Part shown: piece by piece, positions 22,030 to 35,798 of the stretch | Layout of the letters: each line of letters begins with the position of its first letter | Position numbering within the stretch: the stretch's first letter is position 1 | IMG/VR virus record: IMGVR_UViG_3300049732_000090 | Coordinates: 1-39,362 of that record | DNA from: a virus | Taxonomy: Duplodnaviria > Caudoviricetes | Reading direction: 5' to 3' (one strand) | DNA: 39,362 nucleotides | Made by a program: the position numbers and the translations under genes | Notes under the pieces: generated by a model | The model's input: the letters and a program-made list of their open reading frames with translations, nothing else | Told to the model about the DNA's origin: nothing | Databases searched by the model: none

Positions 22030-22475
22030 GGCGACGATATGTTTTTATATTTCCGACTCTGCTGCTCGCCACCTGCTCGATGCAGACGGTGCGGCTGACC
22101 CGCGAACAGTGCCGTCTGCTCGAAAGATGGTACCCGAACACCTGTAACCTGGACTATGGCAGCCGACCCGCAGAACGCCGCAGCGAAGGCGGTACAGCGC
22201 GACCGAGCAACAGAGGCGGCAATGGTGCTGGAACCGGCAACCCTGCTCCTGGTGGGGCTGGCGGGGGAGCGGGCGGCGGCAATAACAATCCTCCTGGCGG
22301 CGGCTCTCCTCCTGCTGGCGGCGGTGGTGGCGGCAGTGAGCCACCCGGCAACGGAGGCGGCGGCCAGCCCGGCGGCGACCACAATAAAGGGCATGGGAAC
22401 GATCCCGGCCATTCGGACCCGGACAACCCCGGCCAGGGCAAGGGCGGACATGGACAGAAAGGAAAGCAGAAATGA
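22026..22475 (+). CDS. Putative lipoprotein with Gly/Pro/Asn-rich tail
   Basis: GTG overlaps the upstream stop; MRRRYVFIFPTLLLATC has a basic N-region, hydrophobic core and lipobox-like LATC; low-complexity C-terminus. Confidence 0.55.
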   Translation: MRRRYVFIFPTLLLATCSMQTVRLTREQCRLLERWYPNTCNLDYGSRPAERRSEGGTARPSNRGGNGAGTGNPAPGGAGGGAGGGNNNPPGGGSPPAGGGGGGSEPPGNGGGGQPGGDHNKGHGNDPGHSDPDNPGQGKGGHGQKGKQK

Positions 22476-22663
22476 TTGAAGCTCTGATTTCGCTGCTGAT
22501 CGTGGTGCTGGTGGTCGGCCTCGTTGCGTGGATCATCATCTACTGCGTCGAACTGCTGCCGCTGGAAGCCAACTTCAAGCAGATCGCGCGCGCCATCATC
22601 CTGGTGATCGCTGTGCTGGTGATCCTGCTGCGGGCACTGCCGCTGCTCGGAATTGCCGTCTAG
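22472..22663 (+). CDS. Small two-TM membrane protein (holin candidate; Thivi_2564-like)
   Basis: 63 aa, two hydrophobic helices separated by LPLEANFKQIAR; last gene of the late operon. Confidence 0.7.
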   Translation: MIEALISLLIVVLVVGLVAWIIIYCVELLPLEANFKQIARAIILVIAVLVILLRALPLLGIAV

Positions 22664-22667
22664 GAAA

Positions 22668-22825
22668 TGGACATGACTGGATGGGATTCGAACCCATGGT
22701 CGCCGACCTTAGCAGCGAACCATCTCCGAGAGAGGTTCTGCGGTTGTTAATCCGCAGCGATACCAGTACGACCTAAATGCTGCGATCGCTCGCATCATCG
22801 TCTAACTGGCCTACGCAATCATGCC
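22668..22825 (-). ncRNA. Expanded tRNA-like structured RNA (158 nt)
   Basis: Minus strand: 5' GGCAUGAUUG pairs with 3' CAGUCAUGUC; perfect T-arm AUGGG-UUCGAAU-CCCAU; ends in CCA; several internal hairpins. Confidence 0.6.
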
Positions 22826-22853
22826 ACTCACAACATAGGCCAAGAAAATCCAG

Positions 22854-22900
22854 AAAAAAACCGGCGGCGAGGAAAAGGGGCTTCAACCCTCGCCGGCCGG
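22854..22900 (-). terminator. Intrinsic terminator of the 22950-23381 gene
   Basis: Minus strand CCGGCCGGCGAGG...CCUCGCCGCCGG followed by U7. Confidence 0.75.
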
Positions 22901-22949
22901 TGAATTGGCAGGTCTTGATGGATCCCACCACGAGCATCCCTATAGCATA

Positions 22950-23381
22950 CTAATATTGCGGGCCGAGCAGTGCCCGCTTGACGATCATCAGGTTCACGGC
23001 GCGATTTCCCCAGGCCTTGACCTTCTTCACCTTCGCCGAGTACTGAGTTGCCCTCTCGAATGCCGCCCATCTGGCTGGCGTGTTGGCGCAGCGTGAGCGG
23101 ACCATCTGGCCGAAGCCATCGGCGCGATAGCCAAGGATTTTGACGTCATTGATAATGCCGCCATAGAGGCTATCCGGCGCTATTGCAGCCATCTCTTGGG
23201 CGGCCTGCCAGCGGGCCGTGATATCGTCCTGCTCGGCCTTCAGTGCCCACGCGGCCGATTGGCATGGCTTCATCCAGGGTGTACGCGCAGCAAAGGCGGT
23301 GACAGTCATCTCGGCAAAAGCCGGCGTGGCGACGGCCGCAGCAATGGCAGCAGCGAATGTGATAGAAAGGATTTTAGGCAT
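22950..23381 (-). CDS. Exported protein, moron next to attP
   Basis: Sec signal MPKILSITFAAAIAAAVATPAFA with A-F-A cleavage site; CAGGA RBS; own promoter and terminator. Confidence 0.75.
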   Translation of the reverse strand: MPKILSITFAAAIAAAVATPAFAEMTVTAFAARTPWMKPCQSAAWALKAEQDDITARWQAAQEMAAIAPDSLYGGIINDVKILGYRADGFGQMVRSRCANTPARWAAFERATQYSAKVKKVKAWGNRAVNLMIVKRALLGPQY

Positions 23382-23449
23382 TTCGAACGGTCCTGTCGTT
23401 TGAGATGTTTAGCGGTTCGTCCGGTCTCAACACCGGACGGGCCGTGCTG

Positions 23450-23479
23450 ATTCTAGTCATGTCAAGCGATTACGATCAA
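23450..23479 (-). promoter_or_regulatory. Putative sigma70 promoter of the moron
   Basis: Minus strand TTGATC-18 nt-TAGAAT. Confidence 0.5.
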
Positions 23480-23545
23480 TCTGTCTCCTTTGCTTTCCGG
23501 TGCCAAAGACTTGTGATGCGATGCCAAGATCGATTGGCGGGTACT

Positions 23546-23706
23546 GCGGGACGCTAACGGAACCTTTTGGAAACGGCGGGCGGGACAGCGTCTTATAAGT
23601 TATTGATTTTGCGTTGATCAAATCTCGACCAATGGGAGATTTTGTCTTAACAAGCTCAATGCTTTGTATTCCGCCGTCCCACACCGTCCCACTTTTGCCG
23701 TCCCAC
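23546..23706. other. attP: attP-like site (arm sites, IHF site, core inverted repeat)
   Basis: CCGTCCCAC x3 (23674, 23684, 23698); inverted GCGGGAC x2 (23546, 23580); TAAGTTATTGATT IHF consensus (23596-23608); AAATCTC-N9-GAGATTT (23620-23642); abuts the integrase stop. Confidence 0.75.
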
Positions 23707-23707
23707 T

Positions 23708-24847
23708 TCATTTCACCACCTTCAGGTCCGGCTTGCGGATCGCCTGCTCAAGTGCGGCCATCTTGCGCATCCCCTTCACCGCCAGCCGCTTCTTGTCGGC
23801 ATCCCTGGTGTAGAGCGCCGCATGCTCGATGCTGGCATGGCCAAGCACTTCCATGATTTCGCGCGTCGTGGCGTCGGCCTCGGCCAGCTTGACACCCAGC
23901 GCCTTGCGCAGACCGTGCATCGAATAGCCAGCCGGGATGCCGGCCTTGGCTGCCCAGTCGATCATCGCCTGCGTCAGTCCATTGTCGGAGAATGTGCGCC
24001 CGAGCCGCGACACCAGCACCCGTTCGGTCGAGCGGTCGAGCGGCGCCAGCGCCTGCGCCAGCATCGGCGTCAGCGGCAAAAACATCTCGCGGCCATACTT
24101 GTTGCGGCCCTTGTGCTGGACGAACTCGAAACCGTCGATCGTCAGCCGCTCGCCGTCGACCGTAAAGGTCTTGGTCTTCAGCTGGTCCCAGCGCAGCCGG
24201 GCGACGTCGCTGGCCCGGTTGCCGAGCCACAGGCCGAGCGCATAGGCGGTGCGCGGCGGCGTGCCGACCGGCCAGCGTCTCTCGAATGCGTCCATCATGT
24301 CTTCCGTCCATGCCGGCCAGCCATCGCGCGGCGGATTGTATTTCAGGGTCGAGGTCGGATCGGCGTCGATCCACTCCTCCTCGATCGCCGTCATGATCAG
24401 CTTGCGGATCGCCTTCAAAGCCACCCTTGCCGCATGCGGCGTCTCGGCCATCGTTTCCAGGTAGGCTTTGACATGCTTGCGGCGCAGTTCGGCCACCGGA
24501 CCGTCGCCCCATGGCTGGCCGCCGTCGGTGTGAGACAGGAAGTTCTCGATGTGACGGGCATCGCGGGTCTTGGTGCGATTGTCCAGCCGCTCCCAGCCGT
24601 CCATCTTCTTCAAGGCGAGATAAGCGGCACGCAGCGATTCCGGCAGCGCGGATCCCGGCAGCCGGACAAGTTGGCCAGGCTTCGGGATTAGCTGGCCATA
24701 GACGGCCGCCTCGTAGGCGTGGTCGAACTCCGGCGAATGCGGCTCTCCCGGCAGCAGGAACTCACGGTGACCGCTCTTGCGAAAGCGCCATCGCTCTCTG
24801 CCGTTGTGGAGTTTCAAAGAGACGTGTGGATAGTCAGGGTGCTTCAT
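23708..24847 (-). CDS. int: Tyrosine integrase
   Basis: G.R.SDV..L.W, K, SMHGLRKA, LGH....A.LYT catalytic residues; N-terminal arm-binding domain (WRFRK...LPGEP.SPEF..AY). Confidence 0.95.
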   Translation of the reverse strand: MKHPDYPHVSLKLHNGRERWRFRKSGHREFLLPGEPHSPEFDHAYEAAVYGQLIPKPGQLVRLPGSALPESLRAAYLALKKMDGWERLDNRTKTRDARHIENFLSHTDGGQPWGDGPVAELRRKHVKAYLETMAETPHAARVALKAIRKLIMTAIEEEWIDADPTSTLKYNPPRDGWPAWTEDMMDAFERRWPVGTPPRTAYALGLWLGNRASDVARLRWDQLKTKTFTVDGERLTIDGFEFVQHKGRNKYGREMFLPLTPMLAQALAPLDRSTERVLVSRLGRTFSDNGLTQAMIDWAAKAGIPAGYSMHGLRKALGVKLAEADATTREIMEVLGHASIEHAALYTRDADKKRLAVKGMRKMAALEQAIRKPDLKVVK

Positions 24848-30584: not shown

Positions 30585-30809
30585 ATGAACGACCTTATTC
30601 AGCACACCTTCGGTGCGCTTACCGACTTCAAACCCGAAGAGGCCAAAGCCATCGACGCCAAGGCCGATGCGCTCATCGCCTACGCCAAGAAGGTGAAGGA
30701 CTGGCCGCTGCTTGAAGAGGCGGTCGAGGTGAAGATCCAGAACCAGCGTGAATTCGTCAAATGGTGGGATGCCAATGTTCGAGGCAGAGGACAGCCTAAA
30801 AAGAAATAA
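30585..30809 (+). CDS. N-terminal segment of the Dam-like gene (frame 0)
   Basis: GGAGGA RBS; [29 protein letters not shown]; ends AAA AAG AAA TAA; protein-like sequence continues in the +1 frame. Confidence 0.65.
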
Positions 30810-31473
30810 CGCAGGACTGCGTTTTTTCTCGCTTGATGAAGCAGAAACGACTGCTGGCATCAAACAGCAGCAGGTCTCGCGCTGGCGCAATCGGCTGGCC
30901 AAGCCGGACAAATACCGGGACCAGCTCGTCGGCAGTCTGATGGCGCAAGCCATGGCCGAAAAAATGGAGCATCGCGTCGAGGCGAACTCCGGCGATTTCG
31001 AATGGTATACGCCGGCCGAATATATTCTGATGGCGCGAAACGTCCTTGGTGCCATCGACCTGGACCCGGCATCCAGCCATCTTGCCAACCGGACTGTGCA
31101 AGCCACCCGGTTCTTCTCATCCGAAACCAACGGCCTTGGCCACTCCTGGGACGGTAGGGTGTGGATGAATCCTCCCTATACCTACCCGCTGATTTCGCAA
31201 TTCGCCGAAAAGCTGGTCGAGGAATATCTGGCTGGTCACGTGACGGCTGCCGTCGTCCTCACCAACGACTGCACTGACACCGGATGGTTTCACACGCTGG
31301 CCACCGCATCGGCGGCACTATGCTTTCTTCGCGGCCGGATTCGCTTCGTGCGCCTGGACGGCGAGAAAAGCACACCCACGCAGGGCCAGACCTTTTTCTA
31401 TTTCGGCCAGGAGACTGACCGTTTCGCCAATGTGTTTGGCGATGCGGGCTTCATCGCGGAGGTGCGGCGATGA
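30805..31473 (+). CDS. DNA N6-adenine methyltransferase, phage Dam-like (start uncertain; +1 continuation of 30585)
   Basis: EWYTP..Y...AR.VLG.IDLDPAS; NGL...[10 protein letters not shown]; TDT.WF; GRIRF; HTH-like [11 protein letters not shown] upstream. Confidence 0.85.
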
Positions 31474-32078
31474 ACGCATACGACCATTGTCTGGAAATTG
31501 AACGGCGCGGCATCGAAATGCTGAAGCCGTTTCTTGACCGTGAATCGGATGGCCGGTGGCAACTGCTAAAGGGGAATCCGCAAGCGGAGCGATTGCAGAA
31601 AGAGTGCGGCGATGTGTTCCTCACATTGCCGAGCGGTCGGGCACCGTTTGTCGAAATCAAGGCGGAAGAAACTTACACCGGCAATCTGGTCTACGAAGAC
31701 TGGAGCAATGCCCGATTCCTGAATGATCCTGTCGGGCATCTGCGCGACGGCTCGACACCCGGCTGGTCATTGACGTGTCGTTCTGAAGTCTTGGCGAATG
31801 CATTTCTGGACCAGCGCATTGCCGTATTTTGCAAGACGGTGGACTTGCTTCGTTTCGCGAACGACCGACGCACTTACAAGTTTCTGTCGCCGCCACTTCC
31901 GCAACGGAAACATACGCAGCGCAACCTGACCGTTATCCGGCTCGTGCTGTTGAAGGAATTTCGGAAGTATTTTCCGGTTCACTCCTATCGGGTCGACCAA
32001 GGTCTTCTCTTTCCTGAAGACCTGCTCGCCATTCATCAACTTGTTGATGAAGGCCAAGTCGCGTGGCACCGGCCATGA
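31470..32078 (+). CDS. PD-(D/E)xK-like nuclease candidate
   Basis: LQK..GD.......VEIKAE...TGNL.YE.WSN.......TPGW; ATGA-coupled to the MTase. Confidence 0.55.
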   Translation: MNAYDHCLEIERRGIEMLKPFLDRESDGRWQLLKGNPQAERLQKECGDVFLTLPSGRAPFVEIKAEETYTGNLVYEDWSNARFLNDPVGHLRDGSTPGWSLTCRSEVLANAFLDQRIAVFCKTVDLLRFANDRRTYKFLSPPLPQRKHTQRNLTVIRLVLLKEFRKYFPVHSYRVDQGLLFPEDLLAIHQLVDEGQVAWHRP

Positions 32079-32590
32079 CCCCCTCCTGGGATCCTTCCCT
32101 CGTGGCGCAGCTGGTGTCGGCCGGCTGCAATGCGCGCGCCATTTCGGTGGTCTTCGGGCTGTCGAAGAACGCCGTGCTGGGAAGGCTGCACCGCGACAAG
32201 CAGTTGAACAAGCTGTGGACGGACAAGGTCGCAGCGGAGCGGCCACGGCGCAAGAAATACAAGCCGGCGCCTGTGCGGAAGACGATCGTTCCGCCTCCGG
32301 AATTATCGGATCCGCCATCGGCCAAAAAGGTCACCGCCGACTGGGGCGCCTGGGAGGAACGCGAAGGGAAAAAGCGCGCCATGGAAGTCAAGATGCACCC
32401 GGCCAAGCCGCATATGCTGCGGGTGCCGCTGCTCAACCTCGGCGCCAATCAATGCCGCTGGCCGGTGGAAGAGGCGGTGGTGACGGGTGGGTATCTTTTT
32501 TGTGCGGCGTCCACGGAGTTCGGTCAGACCTATTGCCGCTATCACCGATCCAAAAGCCTTGCAGGAAAACGCGATGAGCCAAAAAATTGA
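32075..32590 (+). CDS. gcrA: GcrA-like transcriptional regulator
   Basis: W......L...G..A..I....G.SKNAVLG.LHR at the N-terminus; LL.L...QCRWP......FC.......TYC.YH at the C-terminus. Confidence 0.85.
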
Positions 32591-33104
32591 CATGCTGGGT
32601 CAACGCATCGGTCGTCTGCTCGTGATGCAGGATGCTGGTGCCGACGCTTCCGGCAGGACGCAATGGTTCTGCCGCTGCGATTGCGGGGAACAGAAGGTCA
32701 TCAAAGGAAAATATTTGCGCAATGGCGACACGCAGTCGTGCGGCTGTCTGCACCGTGACGGTGTGCAAAAACTGATGACGACGCACGGCGCGACAGTGAA
32801 CCATCAATGGCGGCCGGAATATCGAACCTGGGCGAACATCAAGACCCGCTGCCTCAATCCGCAATTCAAGGACTTCCACTATTACGGCGGCCGTGGCGTC
32901 AAGGTCTGCGACCGGTGGCGCGACAGCTTCGAAGCCTTCTTTGAGGACATGGGTCCAAAGCCTTCGCCAGGGCTGACCATCGACCGTGTGGATCCGTATG
33001 GAGACTACAAGCCGGGCAACTGCCGGTGGGCGACATGGTCGGAGCAGGCCCGCAACAAGCGGTTTCACAAGGCAAGGGCGCTGGCGAAGGGTGGCGTGGG
33101 ATGA
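32574..33104 (+). CDS. HNH-type homing endonuclease, paralogue of 11200-11934
   Basis: GQR.GRL.V...WFC.CDCG...SCGC; EYR.W..IK.RC.NP....YYGGRG.KVC.RW..SF..F..DMG..P...[15 protein letters not shown]. Confidence 0.82.
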
Positions 33105-33904
33105 TCCGGCGGCAAGAGCAAATCGGCGATTGCCGGCTCATCCTCGGTGACTGTCTGGATGTCATTCCGACATTGAAGGCGATCGACGCCGTAATTACCG
33201 ATCCACCCTATAGCAGCGGCGGCATGTTTCGCGGCGACCGCGCCTATCTGCGGACATCAACGAAATACGTTCAGTCCGGCAGCATCTTCAAAGCAGAATT
33301 TTCCGGCGACAATCGCGATCAACGCGCGTTTCTGGCGTGGTCGACGATCTGGCTGGGCCGCTTGCTGCAAGCGTCAAAGCCCGGCGCCGTGTGCATGGTT
33401 TTCACCGATTGGCGCCAACTACCGACGATGACGGATGCCGTGCAATGCGGCGGCTGGGTCTGGCGCAATCTGGTCACGTGGTGGAAACCGGGCATCCGCA
33501 TGCAGCGCGGCCGGTTCTCATCGTCAGCCGAATATATCGTCTATGCGTCCAACGGCATGCCGGCAGATGGCGAACAATCGCCGCAGAACGTGATGATGTT
33601 CGCGCCGGTCGCCGGCGAGGACAAGGAGCACATTGCCGAGAAGCCGAAAGCGCTGCTGCAGGAGCTTGTCAGCGTCACAATTCCCGGCGCGCTGGTCGTG
33701 GATCCATTCATGGGATCGGGCACCACTGGCTTGGCTTGTGTCCAGTCGGGGCGGCGGTTCATCGGCATTGAGCTGGACGAGCATAGTTTTGACCAGGCGT
33801 GCAATCGTATTAGCCAGGCTTATGCACAACCGGACTTTTTCGTGCGCCAACAAGCACCGACGCAGCCGAGATTGCCGGGATTGGAACAGGTGGCCACCGC
33901 ATGA
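33101..33904 (+). CDS. DNA amino-methyltransferase (N6A/N4C, beta order)
   Basis: [32 protein letters not shown].....R.FIGIE. Confidence 0.92.
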
Positions 33905-34305
33905 ACCACCAGCTCCACCTGTTCACCCGACGAAAGGCCCGCAAGCTGCCGCCGGCAAAGGAGTTTGCCACCCACTGCGCTGTTGCAGACCTGCTGCGTG
34001 TGTCGCTTAGTCCTGGCTGGATCTGGTTTCACTATCCGGCCGGTGAAAACCGCGATGCCAGGACCGGCGCACGGCTCAAGAGAATGGGCACCAAGGCCGG
34101 CGTTGCCGACTTCCTTTTCATTAGCCCGCCCAATGGCTTGTTCCATGCGCTTGAGCTAAAGCGCGGCAACCTTAAACCAACGCCTGAACAGCTTGAGTTT
34201 CTGCATCAGGTGAAAGCGGCGGGCGGAAAAGCCAACTGGTGCAACAGCTTCGACGGCGCGGTTGCGGTGCTCAAGCATTGGGGCGCTTTGAGGGTGGCTC
34301 AATGA
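33901..34305 (+). CDS. VRR-NUC domain nuclease
   Basis: WFH.PAGE.R....GA.LKRMG..AGVAD.......LELK......T.EQ..F. Confidence 0.85.
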   Translation: MNHQLHLFTRRKARKLPPAKEFATHCAVADLLRVSLSPGWIWFHYPAGENRDARTGARLKRMGTKAGVADFLFISPPNGLFHALELKRGNLKPTPEQLEFLHQVKAAGGKANWCNSFDGAVAVLKHWGALRVAQ

Positions 34306-35798
34306 TGCGCGTGCTCGACCTGTTCAGCGGCATCGGCGGCTTCAGCCTCGGTCTTGAAAGAACCGGCGGCTTCCGCACGGTCGCCTTCTGCGAGATCGAG
34401 CCTTATTGCCAAAAGGTGCTGGCGAAACATTGGCCTGGGGTGAAATGCTATGACGATGTCCGAAGCCTTTCAGCCGCTGCTCTGGCCAGAGACGGAATTG
34501 CCGTCGATGTCATCTGCGGCGGCTTTCCGTGCCAGGACATTTCCGCAGCTGGACGGGGTGCCGGGATCGACGGCGAGCGGTCGGGACTATGGTCGGAGTT
34601 CGCCCGACTTATTGGCGAGATACGACCGCGCTACGCGATCATCGAAAATGTCTCAAACCTTAGAAGCGGCTTCACCGTTCATGAACGGTGGCATGACCGC
34701 TGCCTATGTGGCTGGGCTTATCGATGGCGAAGGGTGTCTGTACATCGTCAGGCGGAAGAAGTGGTTCTATCCGCGTCTCGATCTCGCAATGGCGGACAAG
34801 GCTCTGCCGCTCTTGCAGAAGCTGCATCACCAGTTTGGCGGGAGCCTCAATCTCCATCGCAAGGCAACGGAACGGTGGGACGGAGCGCATCGCTGGGCGC
34901 TGATGGGCCAGCCTCTGCGGGAGTTGCTGACGAACTGTCTGCCCTTCTTTCAGGTGAAGAAGAGGCAGGCAGAACTATGCCTGAATTTGAACCCCAGGGA
35001 TGCGGAGACGATCAGGGCGCTGCTTACCGAATTGAACCGCAAGGGACCACCTGTGACGCAGGAGGCAGGGTGGTTTGCCCGGCGTGTGGGCGACCAGTGG
35101 CTGACGCCGCAGCAGAACTTCATCGATCCTACTGGTTTCACCGTGTTCTCGGAGACCTGGCCGAGATCGGGTATGACGCAGAATGGCACTGCATACCGGC
35201 TGCCGCCGTTGGCGCCCCTCACCGACGCGACCGGGTCTGGATTGTGGCCTACGCCCAACCTGCCCAACGGCGGCAGGACGCTGCACCATGTGGACGAATG
35301 GCGGGGCAACAGCGCCTATCACAAGGGCAAGAAGGTGCAGGTGGATCTGAACCAGGCAGTGAAGATGCTGCCGACGCCCAGGCCGTGTTCAGGGCTTCGT
35401 TCGTCAGGTGCGAACCGGACAGAGATCATGCGCGCTCTGGAGAAATGGCCGACGCCCAGGACCTTCGCGGCAATGGGAACGACCTTCACCGAGGAATCGC
35501 TGGGCAGGCTGGCAGCGAGGGCGCCCGAAAAGAAAAACCTGGAGGAACTGGTGGCGGCCAGACTGCTGCCGACGCCCACTGTGCAGGATGCGTCGAACAA
35601 TGGCGGCCCCTCCCAGTACGAGCGGAACTCCTTGCCGCTCAATGCGGTGATTGGTGGCGCACTGAACCCGCTGTGGGTAGAGTGGCTCATGGGGTTCCCT
35701 CTCGCGTGGACCGACTTAGCAGCCTCGGCAATGCTGTCGTCCCGCAAATCCCGGAGCTGATCGGCCGCGCCATCCTGGCGAGGGAGGCGGCGGGATGA
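34302..35798 (+). CDS. C5-cytosine DNA methyltransferase, large polypeptide (motifs I-VIII and X) with a ~150-aa insert
   Basis: LDLFSGIGG (I), GGFPCQD (IV), IIENV (VI), GAPHRRDR.W (VIII), LGNAVVP (X); no motif IX in this frame. Confidence 0.9.
   Translation: MMRVLDLFSGIGGFSLGLERTGGFRTVAFCEIEPYCQKVLAKHWPGVKCYDDVRSLSAAALARDGIAVDVICGGFPCQDISAAGRGAGIDGERSGLWSEFARLIGEIRPRYAIIENVSNLRSGFTVHERWHDRCLCGWAYRWRRVSVHRQAEEVVLSASRSRNGGQGSAALAEAASPVWREPQSPSQGNGTVGRSASLGADGPASAGVADELSALLSGEEEAGRTMPEFEPQGCGDDQGAAYRIEPQGTTCDAGGRVVCPACGRPVADAAAELHRSYWFHRVLGDLAEIGYDAEWHCIPAAAVGAPHRRDRVWIVAYAQPAQRRQDAAPCGRMAGQQRLSQGQEGAGGSEPGSEDAADAQAVFRASFVRCEPDRDHARSGEMADAQDLRGNGNDLHRGIAGQAGSEGARKEKPGGTGGGQTAADAHCAGCVEQWRPLPVRAELLAAQCGDWWRTEPAVGRVAHGVPSRVDRLSSLGNAVVPQIPELIGRAILAREAAG
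34450..35760 (+). CDS. Nested +1-frame polypeptide: MTase small subunit (motif IX, xPTP repeats) containing a LAGLIDADG domain
   Basis: 436 open codons; AYVAGLIDGEG; ETWPRSG; four (W/L)PTP units; LNPLWVEWLMGFP..WT is motif IX-like. Confidence 0.8.
   Translation: MTMSEAFQPLLWPETELPSMSSAAAFRARTFPQLDGVPGSTASGRDYGRSSPDLLARYDRATRSSKMSQTLEAASPFMNGGMTAAYVAGLIDGEGCLYIVRRKKWFYPRLDLAMADKALPLLQKLHHQFGGSLNLHRKATERWDGAHRWALMGQPLRELLTNCLPFFQVKKRQAELCLNLNPRDAETIRALLTELNRKGPPVTQEAGWFARRVGDQWLTPQQNFIDPTGFTVFSETWPRSGMTQNGTAYRLPPLAPLTDATGSGLWPTPNLPNGGRTLHHVDEWRGNSAYHKGKKVQVDLNQAVKMLPTPRPCSGLRSSGANRTEIMRALEKWPTPRTFAAMGTTFTEESLGRLAARAPEKKNLEELVAARLLPTPTVQDASNNGGPSQYERNSLPLNAVIGGALNPLWVEWLMGFPLAWTDLAASAMLSSRKSRS

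Follow-up and report, generated by a model that had tools for sequence, protein, structure and literature searches.

How does a temperate phage come to carry, facing its last late gene head-on, a gene for a minus-strand RNA that is shaped like a tRNA with surplus arms, and what might the phage gain from it? The question arises at one locus of a 39,362-nucleotide stretch of viral DNA (the window; IMG/VR record IMGVR_UViG_3300049732_000090). A first-pass annotation, made from the letters alone, had described a tRNA-like RNA on the minus strand at 22825-22668, and both its sequence and its coordinates proved correct as written.

The phage and its accessory cassette

The window belongs to a temperate tailed phage whose head and tail genes occupy the plus strand up to 22663 (Table 1). 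The IMG/VR record is linear, and CheckV puts its completeness at 65%. The integrase is about 46-55% identical to named relatives from Mesorhizobium, Sinorhizobium and other Rhizobiaceae, which makes a soil rhizobial bacterium the likely host. ARAGORN calls no tRNA anywhere in the window.

Table 1. Features of the RNA locus and its surroundings, in window coordinates.
Feature	Position	Strand	Remarks
Last late gene	22472-22663	+	63 aa, phrog_23151; convergent with the RNA; stop 4 bases from the RNA 3' end
Accessory insertion, approximate extent	22664-22853	.	from comparison with L049 and L051
tRNA-shaped RNA gene	22668-22825	-	158 nt; predicted six-way junction; 157/158 identical in G001
Terminal stem 3' strand (22679-22670) and encoded CCA (22670-22668)	22668-22679	-	first C paired
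RNA-library piece	22679-22810	-	132 nt; adapters joined at both ends; strand as suggested by adapter orientation
Canonical T arm, 5 bp and 7-nt loop	22681-22697	-	T stem P 0.76
Arm 4, 6 bp and 7-nt loop of anticodon-loop shape	22700-22718	-	P 0.89-0.96
Arm 3, weak hairpin, alternative registers	22719-22736	-	P 0.2-0.7
Arm 2, 6 bp and 8-nt loop	22738-22757	-	P 0.98
Arm 1, long irregular hairpin in D-arm position	22762-22810	-	contains the sole allele difference (22771)
Degenerate tRNA D-arm start	22802-22813	-	U8, A9, G10, A14, G15 and G19 kept, G18 lost; overlaps start of arm 1
Terminal (acceptor-like) stem, 5' strand	22816-22825	-	pair probability 0.90
-10-like hexamer, putative promoter inside the insertion	22832-22837	-	6 nt upstream of the RNA; kept in G001
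Terminator-like hairpin and T run	22854-22900	-	predates the insertion; 81-86% identical in RNA-less relatives
Candidate integrase arm repeats	23673-23708	.	at integrase stop, about 0.85 kb from the RNA; likely attP region
Integrase	24847-23708	-	early genes beyond

Three close relatives were found (G001, L049 and L051), and the RNA is present in two of the four close phage records, this one included. In the second carrier, G001, the RNA is altered at a single position, 22771, and the -10-like box and the terminator accompany it. The upstream genes of G001 are different (a ParB-like gene and one gene of no known function), so the RNA has no fixed partner in cis. L049 and L051 carry the same terminator, and in them no more than 3-5 bases part its T run from the stop codon with which the last late gene ends. 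The RNA model has no hit in either record, both of which may be incomplete. Some 190 bp must therefore have been gained or lost in one piece. Judged by this sequence comparison, the RNA is a discrete accessory cassette of about 190 bp, placed after the last late gene and before a terminator that relatives conserve.

The terminator that the first-pass annotation had placed upstream of the RNA is directly visible (hairpin 22900-22861 followed by seven T residues) and conserved in relatives, and the -10-like hexamer is likewise present. As a promoter the hexamer fared less well: a promoter and terminator scan of 22300-23800 listed three promoter sites, none of them at this spot, and no terminator, and no -35 match is visible.

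Comparison of the window with G001 shows one difference in the 158 sites of the RNA and 5 in the roughly 56 synonymous sites of the gene beside it (Fisher p 0.005), and 22637-22900 as a whole, which includes 27 unchanged coding bases, holds two differences. The sole change within the RNA disrupts one predicted pair of arm 1 and is not compensatory. I consider it probable that the RNA is under selection; its low divergence could also mark a recent recombination tract.

Several neighbouring features deserve mention in their own right. The 84-codon frame that follows the integrase (23457-23711) overlaps an AT-rich stretch as well as several short direct repeats and is probably attP region, not a gene; L051 has three short repeats in a like position at its integrase stop. 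The 143-aa orphan upstream (22950-23381) begins with a signal-peptide-like hydrophobic stretch, has three relatives at 71-74% identity, belongs to no family, shows no link to the RNA, and is a second moron candidate. The early region (30748-35798) clusters three DNA methyltransferase genes with two HNH or related nuclease genes.

Predicted fold

The RNA folds better than its composition would predict (z = -3.48, none of 200 shuffles as good, for 159 nt from 22826). Pair probabilities were computed twice, freely and with the T stem forced. The 10-bp terminal stem (22825-22816/22679-22670), arm 2 and the T arm, all proposed in the first-pass annotation, hold in these models with probabilities of 0.90, 0.98 and 0.76. 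Its long hairpin in the D-arm position keeps its outer helix (22810-22805/22767-22762, P 0.99), with the inside pairs in a different register, and the hairpin at 22736-22719 is predicted as well, albeit weakly and with alternative registers (P 0.2-0.6 free, 0.5-0.7 with the T stem forced). Of the proposed arms, the small GGUC/GACC one is probably wrong: once the T stem is forced it reaches P 0.04, and the ensemble favours arm 4 in its place. Compared as single hand-built structures, though, the earlier fold is no worse than the present one (-62.2 against -60.4 kcal/mol; the best fold with a forced T stem reaches -65.6). The loop of arm 4 (22712-22706) would read AAG (Leu), and two unpaired bases separate this arm from the T stem. 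The 3' CCA is indeed encoded, although its first C lies in the 10-bp stem, leaving CA single-stranded unless the 5' end is trimmed.

Likeness to tRNA and probable origin

At normal thresholds neither ARAGORN nor Rfam matches the RNA, which, as the first-pass annotation stated, fits neither a standard tRNA nor tmRNA nor the permuted YrlA. The Rfam tRNA model (RF00005) matches the T arm alone, at 14.6 bits (E 3.9), short of the cloverleaf above 29 bits or ARAGORN call that I took to define a canonical tRNA; at half threshold ARAGORN reports Leu(AAG) at arm 4, among eight calls in 500 nt. The T arm has the expected 5-bp stem and TTCRANY loop. As 12 of 100 shuffled windows also contained such an arm, it is weak evidence by itself and the case for the RNA rests on other evidence. 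The D loop departs from the tRNA pattern, with A for G18 and no G18-G19 in a D arm of 3-4 bp, so that no D-loop GG is free for the elbow and no standard cloverleaf forms. The acceptor departs too, being a 10-bp stem with a CA overhang as encoded, where a tRNA has 7 bp and a free NCCA.

What points to a tRNA is how the two ends combine. With one bulged C allowed, 22821-22814 and 22680-22674 make a 7-bp acceptor stacked directly on the T stem; the D-arm residues listed in Table 1 then fall in place, and four further pairs lengthen this acceptor to the encoded CCA. Against a profile built from 44 tRNAs of one alphaproteobacterium, the D-arm start has P 0.006 at this fixed position and P 0.48 as a free scan. 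Because both ends are tRNA-like, an expanded whole tRNA gene is a likelier source than a captured 3' half. Together with the discrete insertion, the low divergence and the contigs in RNA libraries, the D-arm start supports a tRNA-derived, non-standard RNA gene.

Some finer readings were tried and set aside. Alignment with a plasmid tRNA-Cys hinted at a further acceptor inside the RNA, at 22770-22763, which fails on both counts examined: its best match over 131 tRNAs was equalled in 112 of 200 shuffles, and its fold (-30.9 kcal/mol) has P 0.005 even in the allele that favours it. A 4-bp D stem with an expanded loop would cost about 11 kcal/mol more than arm 1. The candidates for parent isotype (Cys and Ser) are best matches selected by similarity, and a 26-nt likeness to T4 rnaD, reached in 10 of 1000 shuffles, carries no weight in the argument.

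Contigs from RNA libraries

Is the RNA made? Twenty-one sequencing runs are listed for this locus, all selected for containing it, and four of them are RNA. Compared over 1.8 kb, three of the four have contigs on the RNA element, covering 22677-22810; the fourth (X18) has contigs on the flanks and none on the element, and uncovered parts in contigs alone prove nothing. In X19 and X20 the read-1 adapter is joined at 22679, its last two letters being equal to 22677-22678, and in X19 and X21 the read-2 adapter is joined after 22810, whereas a contig from a DNA run passes through both joints. Both alleles at 22771 occur in the RNA-library contigs. Across 18 kb, 2, 8 and 1 of 30 bins have any cover in the three RNA runs with contigs on the element, against 27 of 30 in the DNA run. 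Contig depth is 16-180 on the RNA element and at most 12 elsewhere, which gives no ranking of genes, since the runs were chosen for containing this locus. The RNA-library runs are all of soil from 2023 and may come from one campaign.

Stray DNA would not be expected to yield a single insert of 132 bp whose joints recur from one library to another. Contigs cannot establish ends, strand, level or stability; the single adapter orientation fits a minus-strand RNA, provided that the library chemistry, which the records do not give, is the usual stranded one. The 132-nt piece runs from the outermost paired base of arm 1 to a point 2 nt past the T stem, and so has neither the 5' strand of the terminal stem nor the CCA and keeps one base of the 3' strand. 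It could be the product of trimming during library making or a genuine core trimmed by exonucleases. The first-pass annotation had counted the lack of a discrete transcript against itself; with fixed adapter joints in three of the four RNA runs, the contigs suggest instead a discrete minus-strand RNA, possibly without its CCA stem. Altogether I regard it as very likely that this is a real transcribed non-coding RNA.

Searches for homologues

In the searches made, G001 holds the only other copy of the RNA. Pattern searches of viral sequences returned 1, 5, 12 and 6 loci, with G001 the sole true copy each time, and a search with the terminator pattern returned 16 loci, of which three are the true relatives and 13 chance matches. 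None of the 33 loci from a metagenome pattern search and none of the 12 from 185,579 species genomes is homologous. Named phages and plasmids gave nothing beyond short T-arm matches, 50,697 phage records no full-length match, and seven more distant relatives of the 63-aa late gene no T arm behind that gene. A two-allele model scores 196-198 bits on both alleles and at most 21 bits on the other 51 of the 53 sources scanned, a subset of the collected loci. Every pattern needs exact words, so diverged copies may escape. The 401 genomes of one alphaproteobacterial order gave no match; as that order is probably not the host's, such blanks show little. The covarying homologues that the first-pass annotation called for have thus not appeared, the near-identical copy in G001 being the only one so far.

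The literature searched, older T4 papers excepted, gave no description of the RNA. One source lists tRNA-like phage candidates, none shown to be identical to it, and the six of its supplementary files that were searched hold no match (PMC10690425).

Other irregular tRNA-like elements were seen along the way. L016 (minus strand, about 170 nt, ending at match 1501-1521), L018, L025, L033 and L034 share an element of about 170 nt with a T arm and complementary 5' and 3' ends, of which several copies differ and which draws no ARAGORN or Rfam call; it is possibly a second family of expanded tRNA-like RNAs, with natural variation. L039 (1411-1525) has about 115 nt with a perfect terminal stem of 9-10 bp, a T arm and CCA, again without a call from ARAGORN or Rfam, and L040 (1432-1526) and L043 have a tRNA-like element of about 95 nt with T arm and CCA, missed by ARAGORN, in a phage-like tRNA cluster. 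In L094 (591-737) and L095 the anticodon region of a tRNA gene is lengthened by an insert of about 70 nt; the gene scores 50 bits with the Rfam tRNA model and is not called by ARAGORN. Phage tRNA-like genes in L089-L092, L096-L098 and L100 combine a Ser(GCU) anticodon with a short-variable-arm body, and several have broken acceptor stems. Phage tRNAs with A34 anticodons include Ser(ACU) in a Rhizobium phage (L101, 3942-4031) and Ile(AAU) in a gut contig (L020, 1445-1523). An irregular long-arm tRNA in a Stellaceae genome (L063, 936-1023) looks allo-tRNA-like, and a Rhizobium leguminosarum plasmid record without annotation holds four tRNA genes in 500 bp (L054, 89-579).

What might the RNA do?

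The acceptor stem and T arm form the half of a tRNA that is read by RNase P, the CCA enzyme and the T-loop modifiers, and morons adjoining attP are usually active in the lysogen. An RNA that is small and abundant, has a promoter of its own and lies beside attP would fit such a moron. My preferred reading, offered tentatively, is that this add-on RNA of the phage is a stable decoy, occupying host proteins that grip tRNA by the acceptor stem and T arm. A tRNA gene would have gained about 80 nt between its D-arm start and its T arm and been captured, thus expanded, at the junction between late genes and integrase. The RNA would be produced in the lysogen, likely from its own promoter, and RNase P, 3' trimming and the T-loop modifiers of the host may treat its top half as a tRNA and so stabilise it; host enzymes do process the tRNA-like domains of YrlA, according to passages of PMC4201824. 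It might then titrate a protein that recognises tRNAs, for instance a defence nuclease that cuts their tails, a toxin that modifies them, or a synthetase, and the prophage would gain by it. With elbow and anticodon geometry lost in the predicted fold, decoding is unlikely. Anticodon nucleases, one of the targets suggested in the first-pass annotation, are less convincing as the object of a decoy, since what remains tRNA-like is the acceptor and the T arm. Phage counter-defence by tRNA, as far as passages of PMC11455837 describe it, replaces the cut tRNA and does no decoying. The 132-nt piece, lacking as it does the terminal stem, could be the trace left by an attack or a matured second form; if it is the cellular form, a top-half decoy fails.

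That same piece invites a different reading, in which the internal arms do the work by base pairing or protein binding, the tRNA shell merely guides processing and confers stability, and activity resides in the 132-nt core. Its ends would match exonuclease trimming to the first stable hairpins, and the predicted fold exposes loops of 7 and 8 nt, but library preparation may also trim ends, and within the phage, where the search was made, the RNA finds no complementary stretch longer than 12 nt; I think this somewhat unlikely. A neutrally carried, degenerate tRNA gene, transcribed and stable thanks to its structure and without function, would account for the absence of the RNA from two of four close records, the lack of a diverged homologue in the scans, the lost G18 and the non-compensatory allele change. 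It is unlikely all the same, because hairpins in every segment are not expected to survive decay alone, divergence lies under the neighbouring synonymous rate and the promoter-like box is conserved. That the RNA is instead a charged or decoding tRNA of unusual build seems to me very doubtful. Arm 4 does resemble a Leu(AAG) anticodon arm, its 7-nt loop having U33 and G37 in place, and one register of the end would give G3-U70 and A73, the marks of alanine; irregular tRNAs can be charged, some without translating, as passages of PMC5389517 report. Yet the decoding version has to accommodate three extra arms, a 10-bp acceptor, no D/T elbow, a gap of no more than 2-3 nt from arm 4 to the T stem and negative results from ARAGORN and Rfam, and the alanine register requires a start at 22826, a mismatched first pair and an added CCA.

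The position of the RNA, between the last late gene and its terminator, raises the thought of a cis element of the late transcript (an antisense 3' UTR, a terminator or a processing signal), and a 29-codon frame on the minus strand (22798-22709) that of a small message. Both are highly improbable, since the plus strand folds worse (-53.2 against -65.9), the adapter orientation favours the minus strand if the libraries are of the usual stranded kind, and relatives end their late operon without the RNA, while the start codon of the frame would be tied up in the pairing of arm 1 and lacks a clear ribosome site. The first-pass annotation had itself raised a relic attachment core made of the 3' end of a host tRNA. 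An integrase does lie upstream, at a distance of 0.9 kb here and of about 3 kb in G001, and the last 45 nt of the RNA do resemble tRNA ends. But none of the 12 matches to T loop and acceptor strand in 185,579 species genomes, among which the actual host is not certain to be, has this T stem; the 5' end is tRNA-like as well and pairs with the 3' end; the arm-like repeats are at the integrase stop; and L051 has an integrase 79% identical and no RNA. An attachment relic is therefore hardly credible.

If the RNA is indeed a decoy for tRNA-directed immunity, it would give phages a second RNA route past such defences, beside replacement tRNAs; if it is neutral, it illustrates how tRNA genes expand into new structured RNAs. 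Either way a single short synthetic gene would be enough to test the question, as there are natural phages with and without the RNA, the cassette is a clean 190 bp, and soil samples show signs that it is transcribed.

Comparison with known systems

Which known RNAs does this one resemble? YrlA, as far as passages of PMC4201824 describe it, likewise does not decode, has a T arm and has its two ends held together by a long stem, but its order is T arm, closed acceptor loop and D arm, whereas here the T arm abuts the 3' strand. Those passages also place YrlA beside Ro60, and none of the four phage records, all incomplete by CheckV, has a TROVE (Ro60) gene. The tmRNAs (RF00023 and permuted forms) share tRNA-like ends enclosing an insert. 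The soil-phage RNA is under half the usual tmRNA length, draws no Rfam or ARAGORN call, lacks G3-U70 in the 7-bp register and has no tag-like frame in place. The allo-tRNAs and other irregular tRNAs, in the passages of Mukai et al. (PMC5389517), are similar in their non-standard acceptor length, their soil origin and the occurrence of some in alphaproteobacterial phages; they keep a cloverleaf with a long V arm, and their acceptor branch has 12 bp (8/4 or 9/3), whereas the branch here is 10+5 with three extra arms, which places the RNA outside that class. The tRNA-Lys with which T5 answers PARIS may have a purpose in common, the countering of tRNA-directed immunity; it is a working tRNA that replaces a cut host tRNA (passages of PMC11455837), whereas the soil-phage RNA is unlikely to decode. 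Family models for DUF3800, GOLLD, ROOL and other Rfam motifs gave no match, and the passages of PMC5737381 on such motifs contain no tRNA-like description.

The closest known kind is T4 species 1 RNA (rnaC; AF158101, 70908-71046), annotated as a 'small, stable RNA', kept in more than 700 phage records and without an Rfam family; its function is listed as unknown in PMC9697503. The two are similar in size (139 and 158 nt) and in predicted layout, with a terminal stem, a long irregular hairpin in the D-arm position, one or more further hairpins and a T arm beside the 3' strand. They have an identical 13-nt T-arm core and no sequence similarity beyond the T arm, and rnaC was not among the matches of the R1 model search. 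They differ in that rnaC has two arms before the T arm rather than four, a short, imperfect terminal stem without an encoded CCA rather than a 10-bp stem with one, and a place in the tRNA cluster of a lytic phage rather than a solitary one in a temperate phage. The soil-phage RNA is therefore like the rnaC kind in shape, and no member of it by sequence; tRNA finders overlook this kind altogether.
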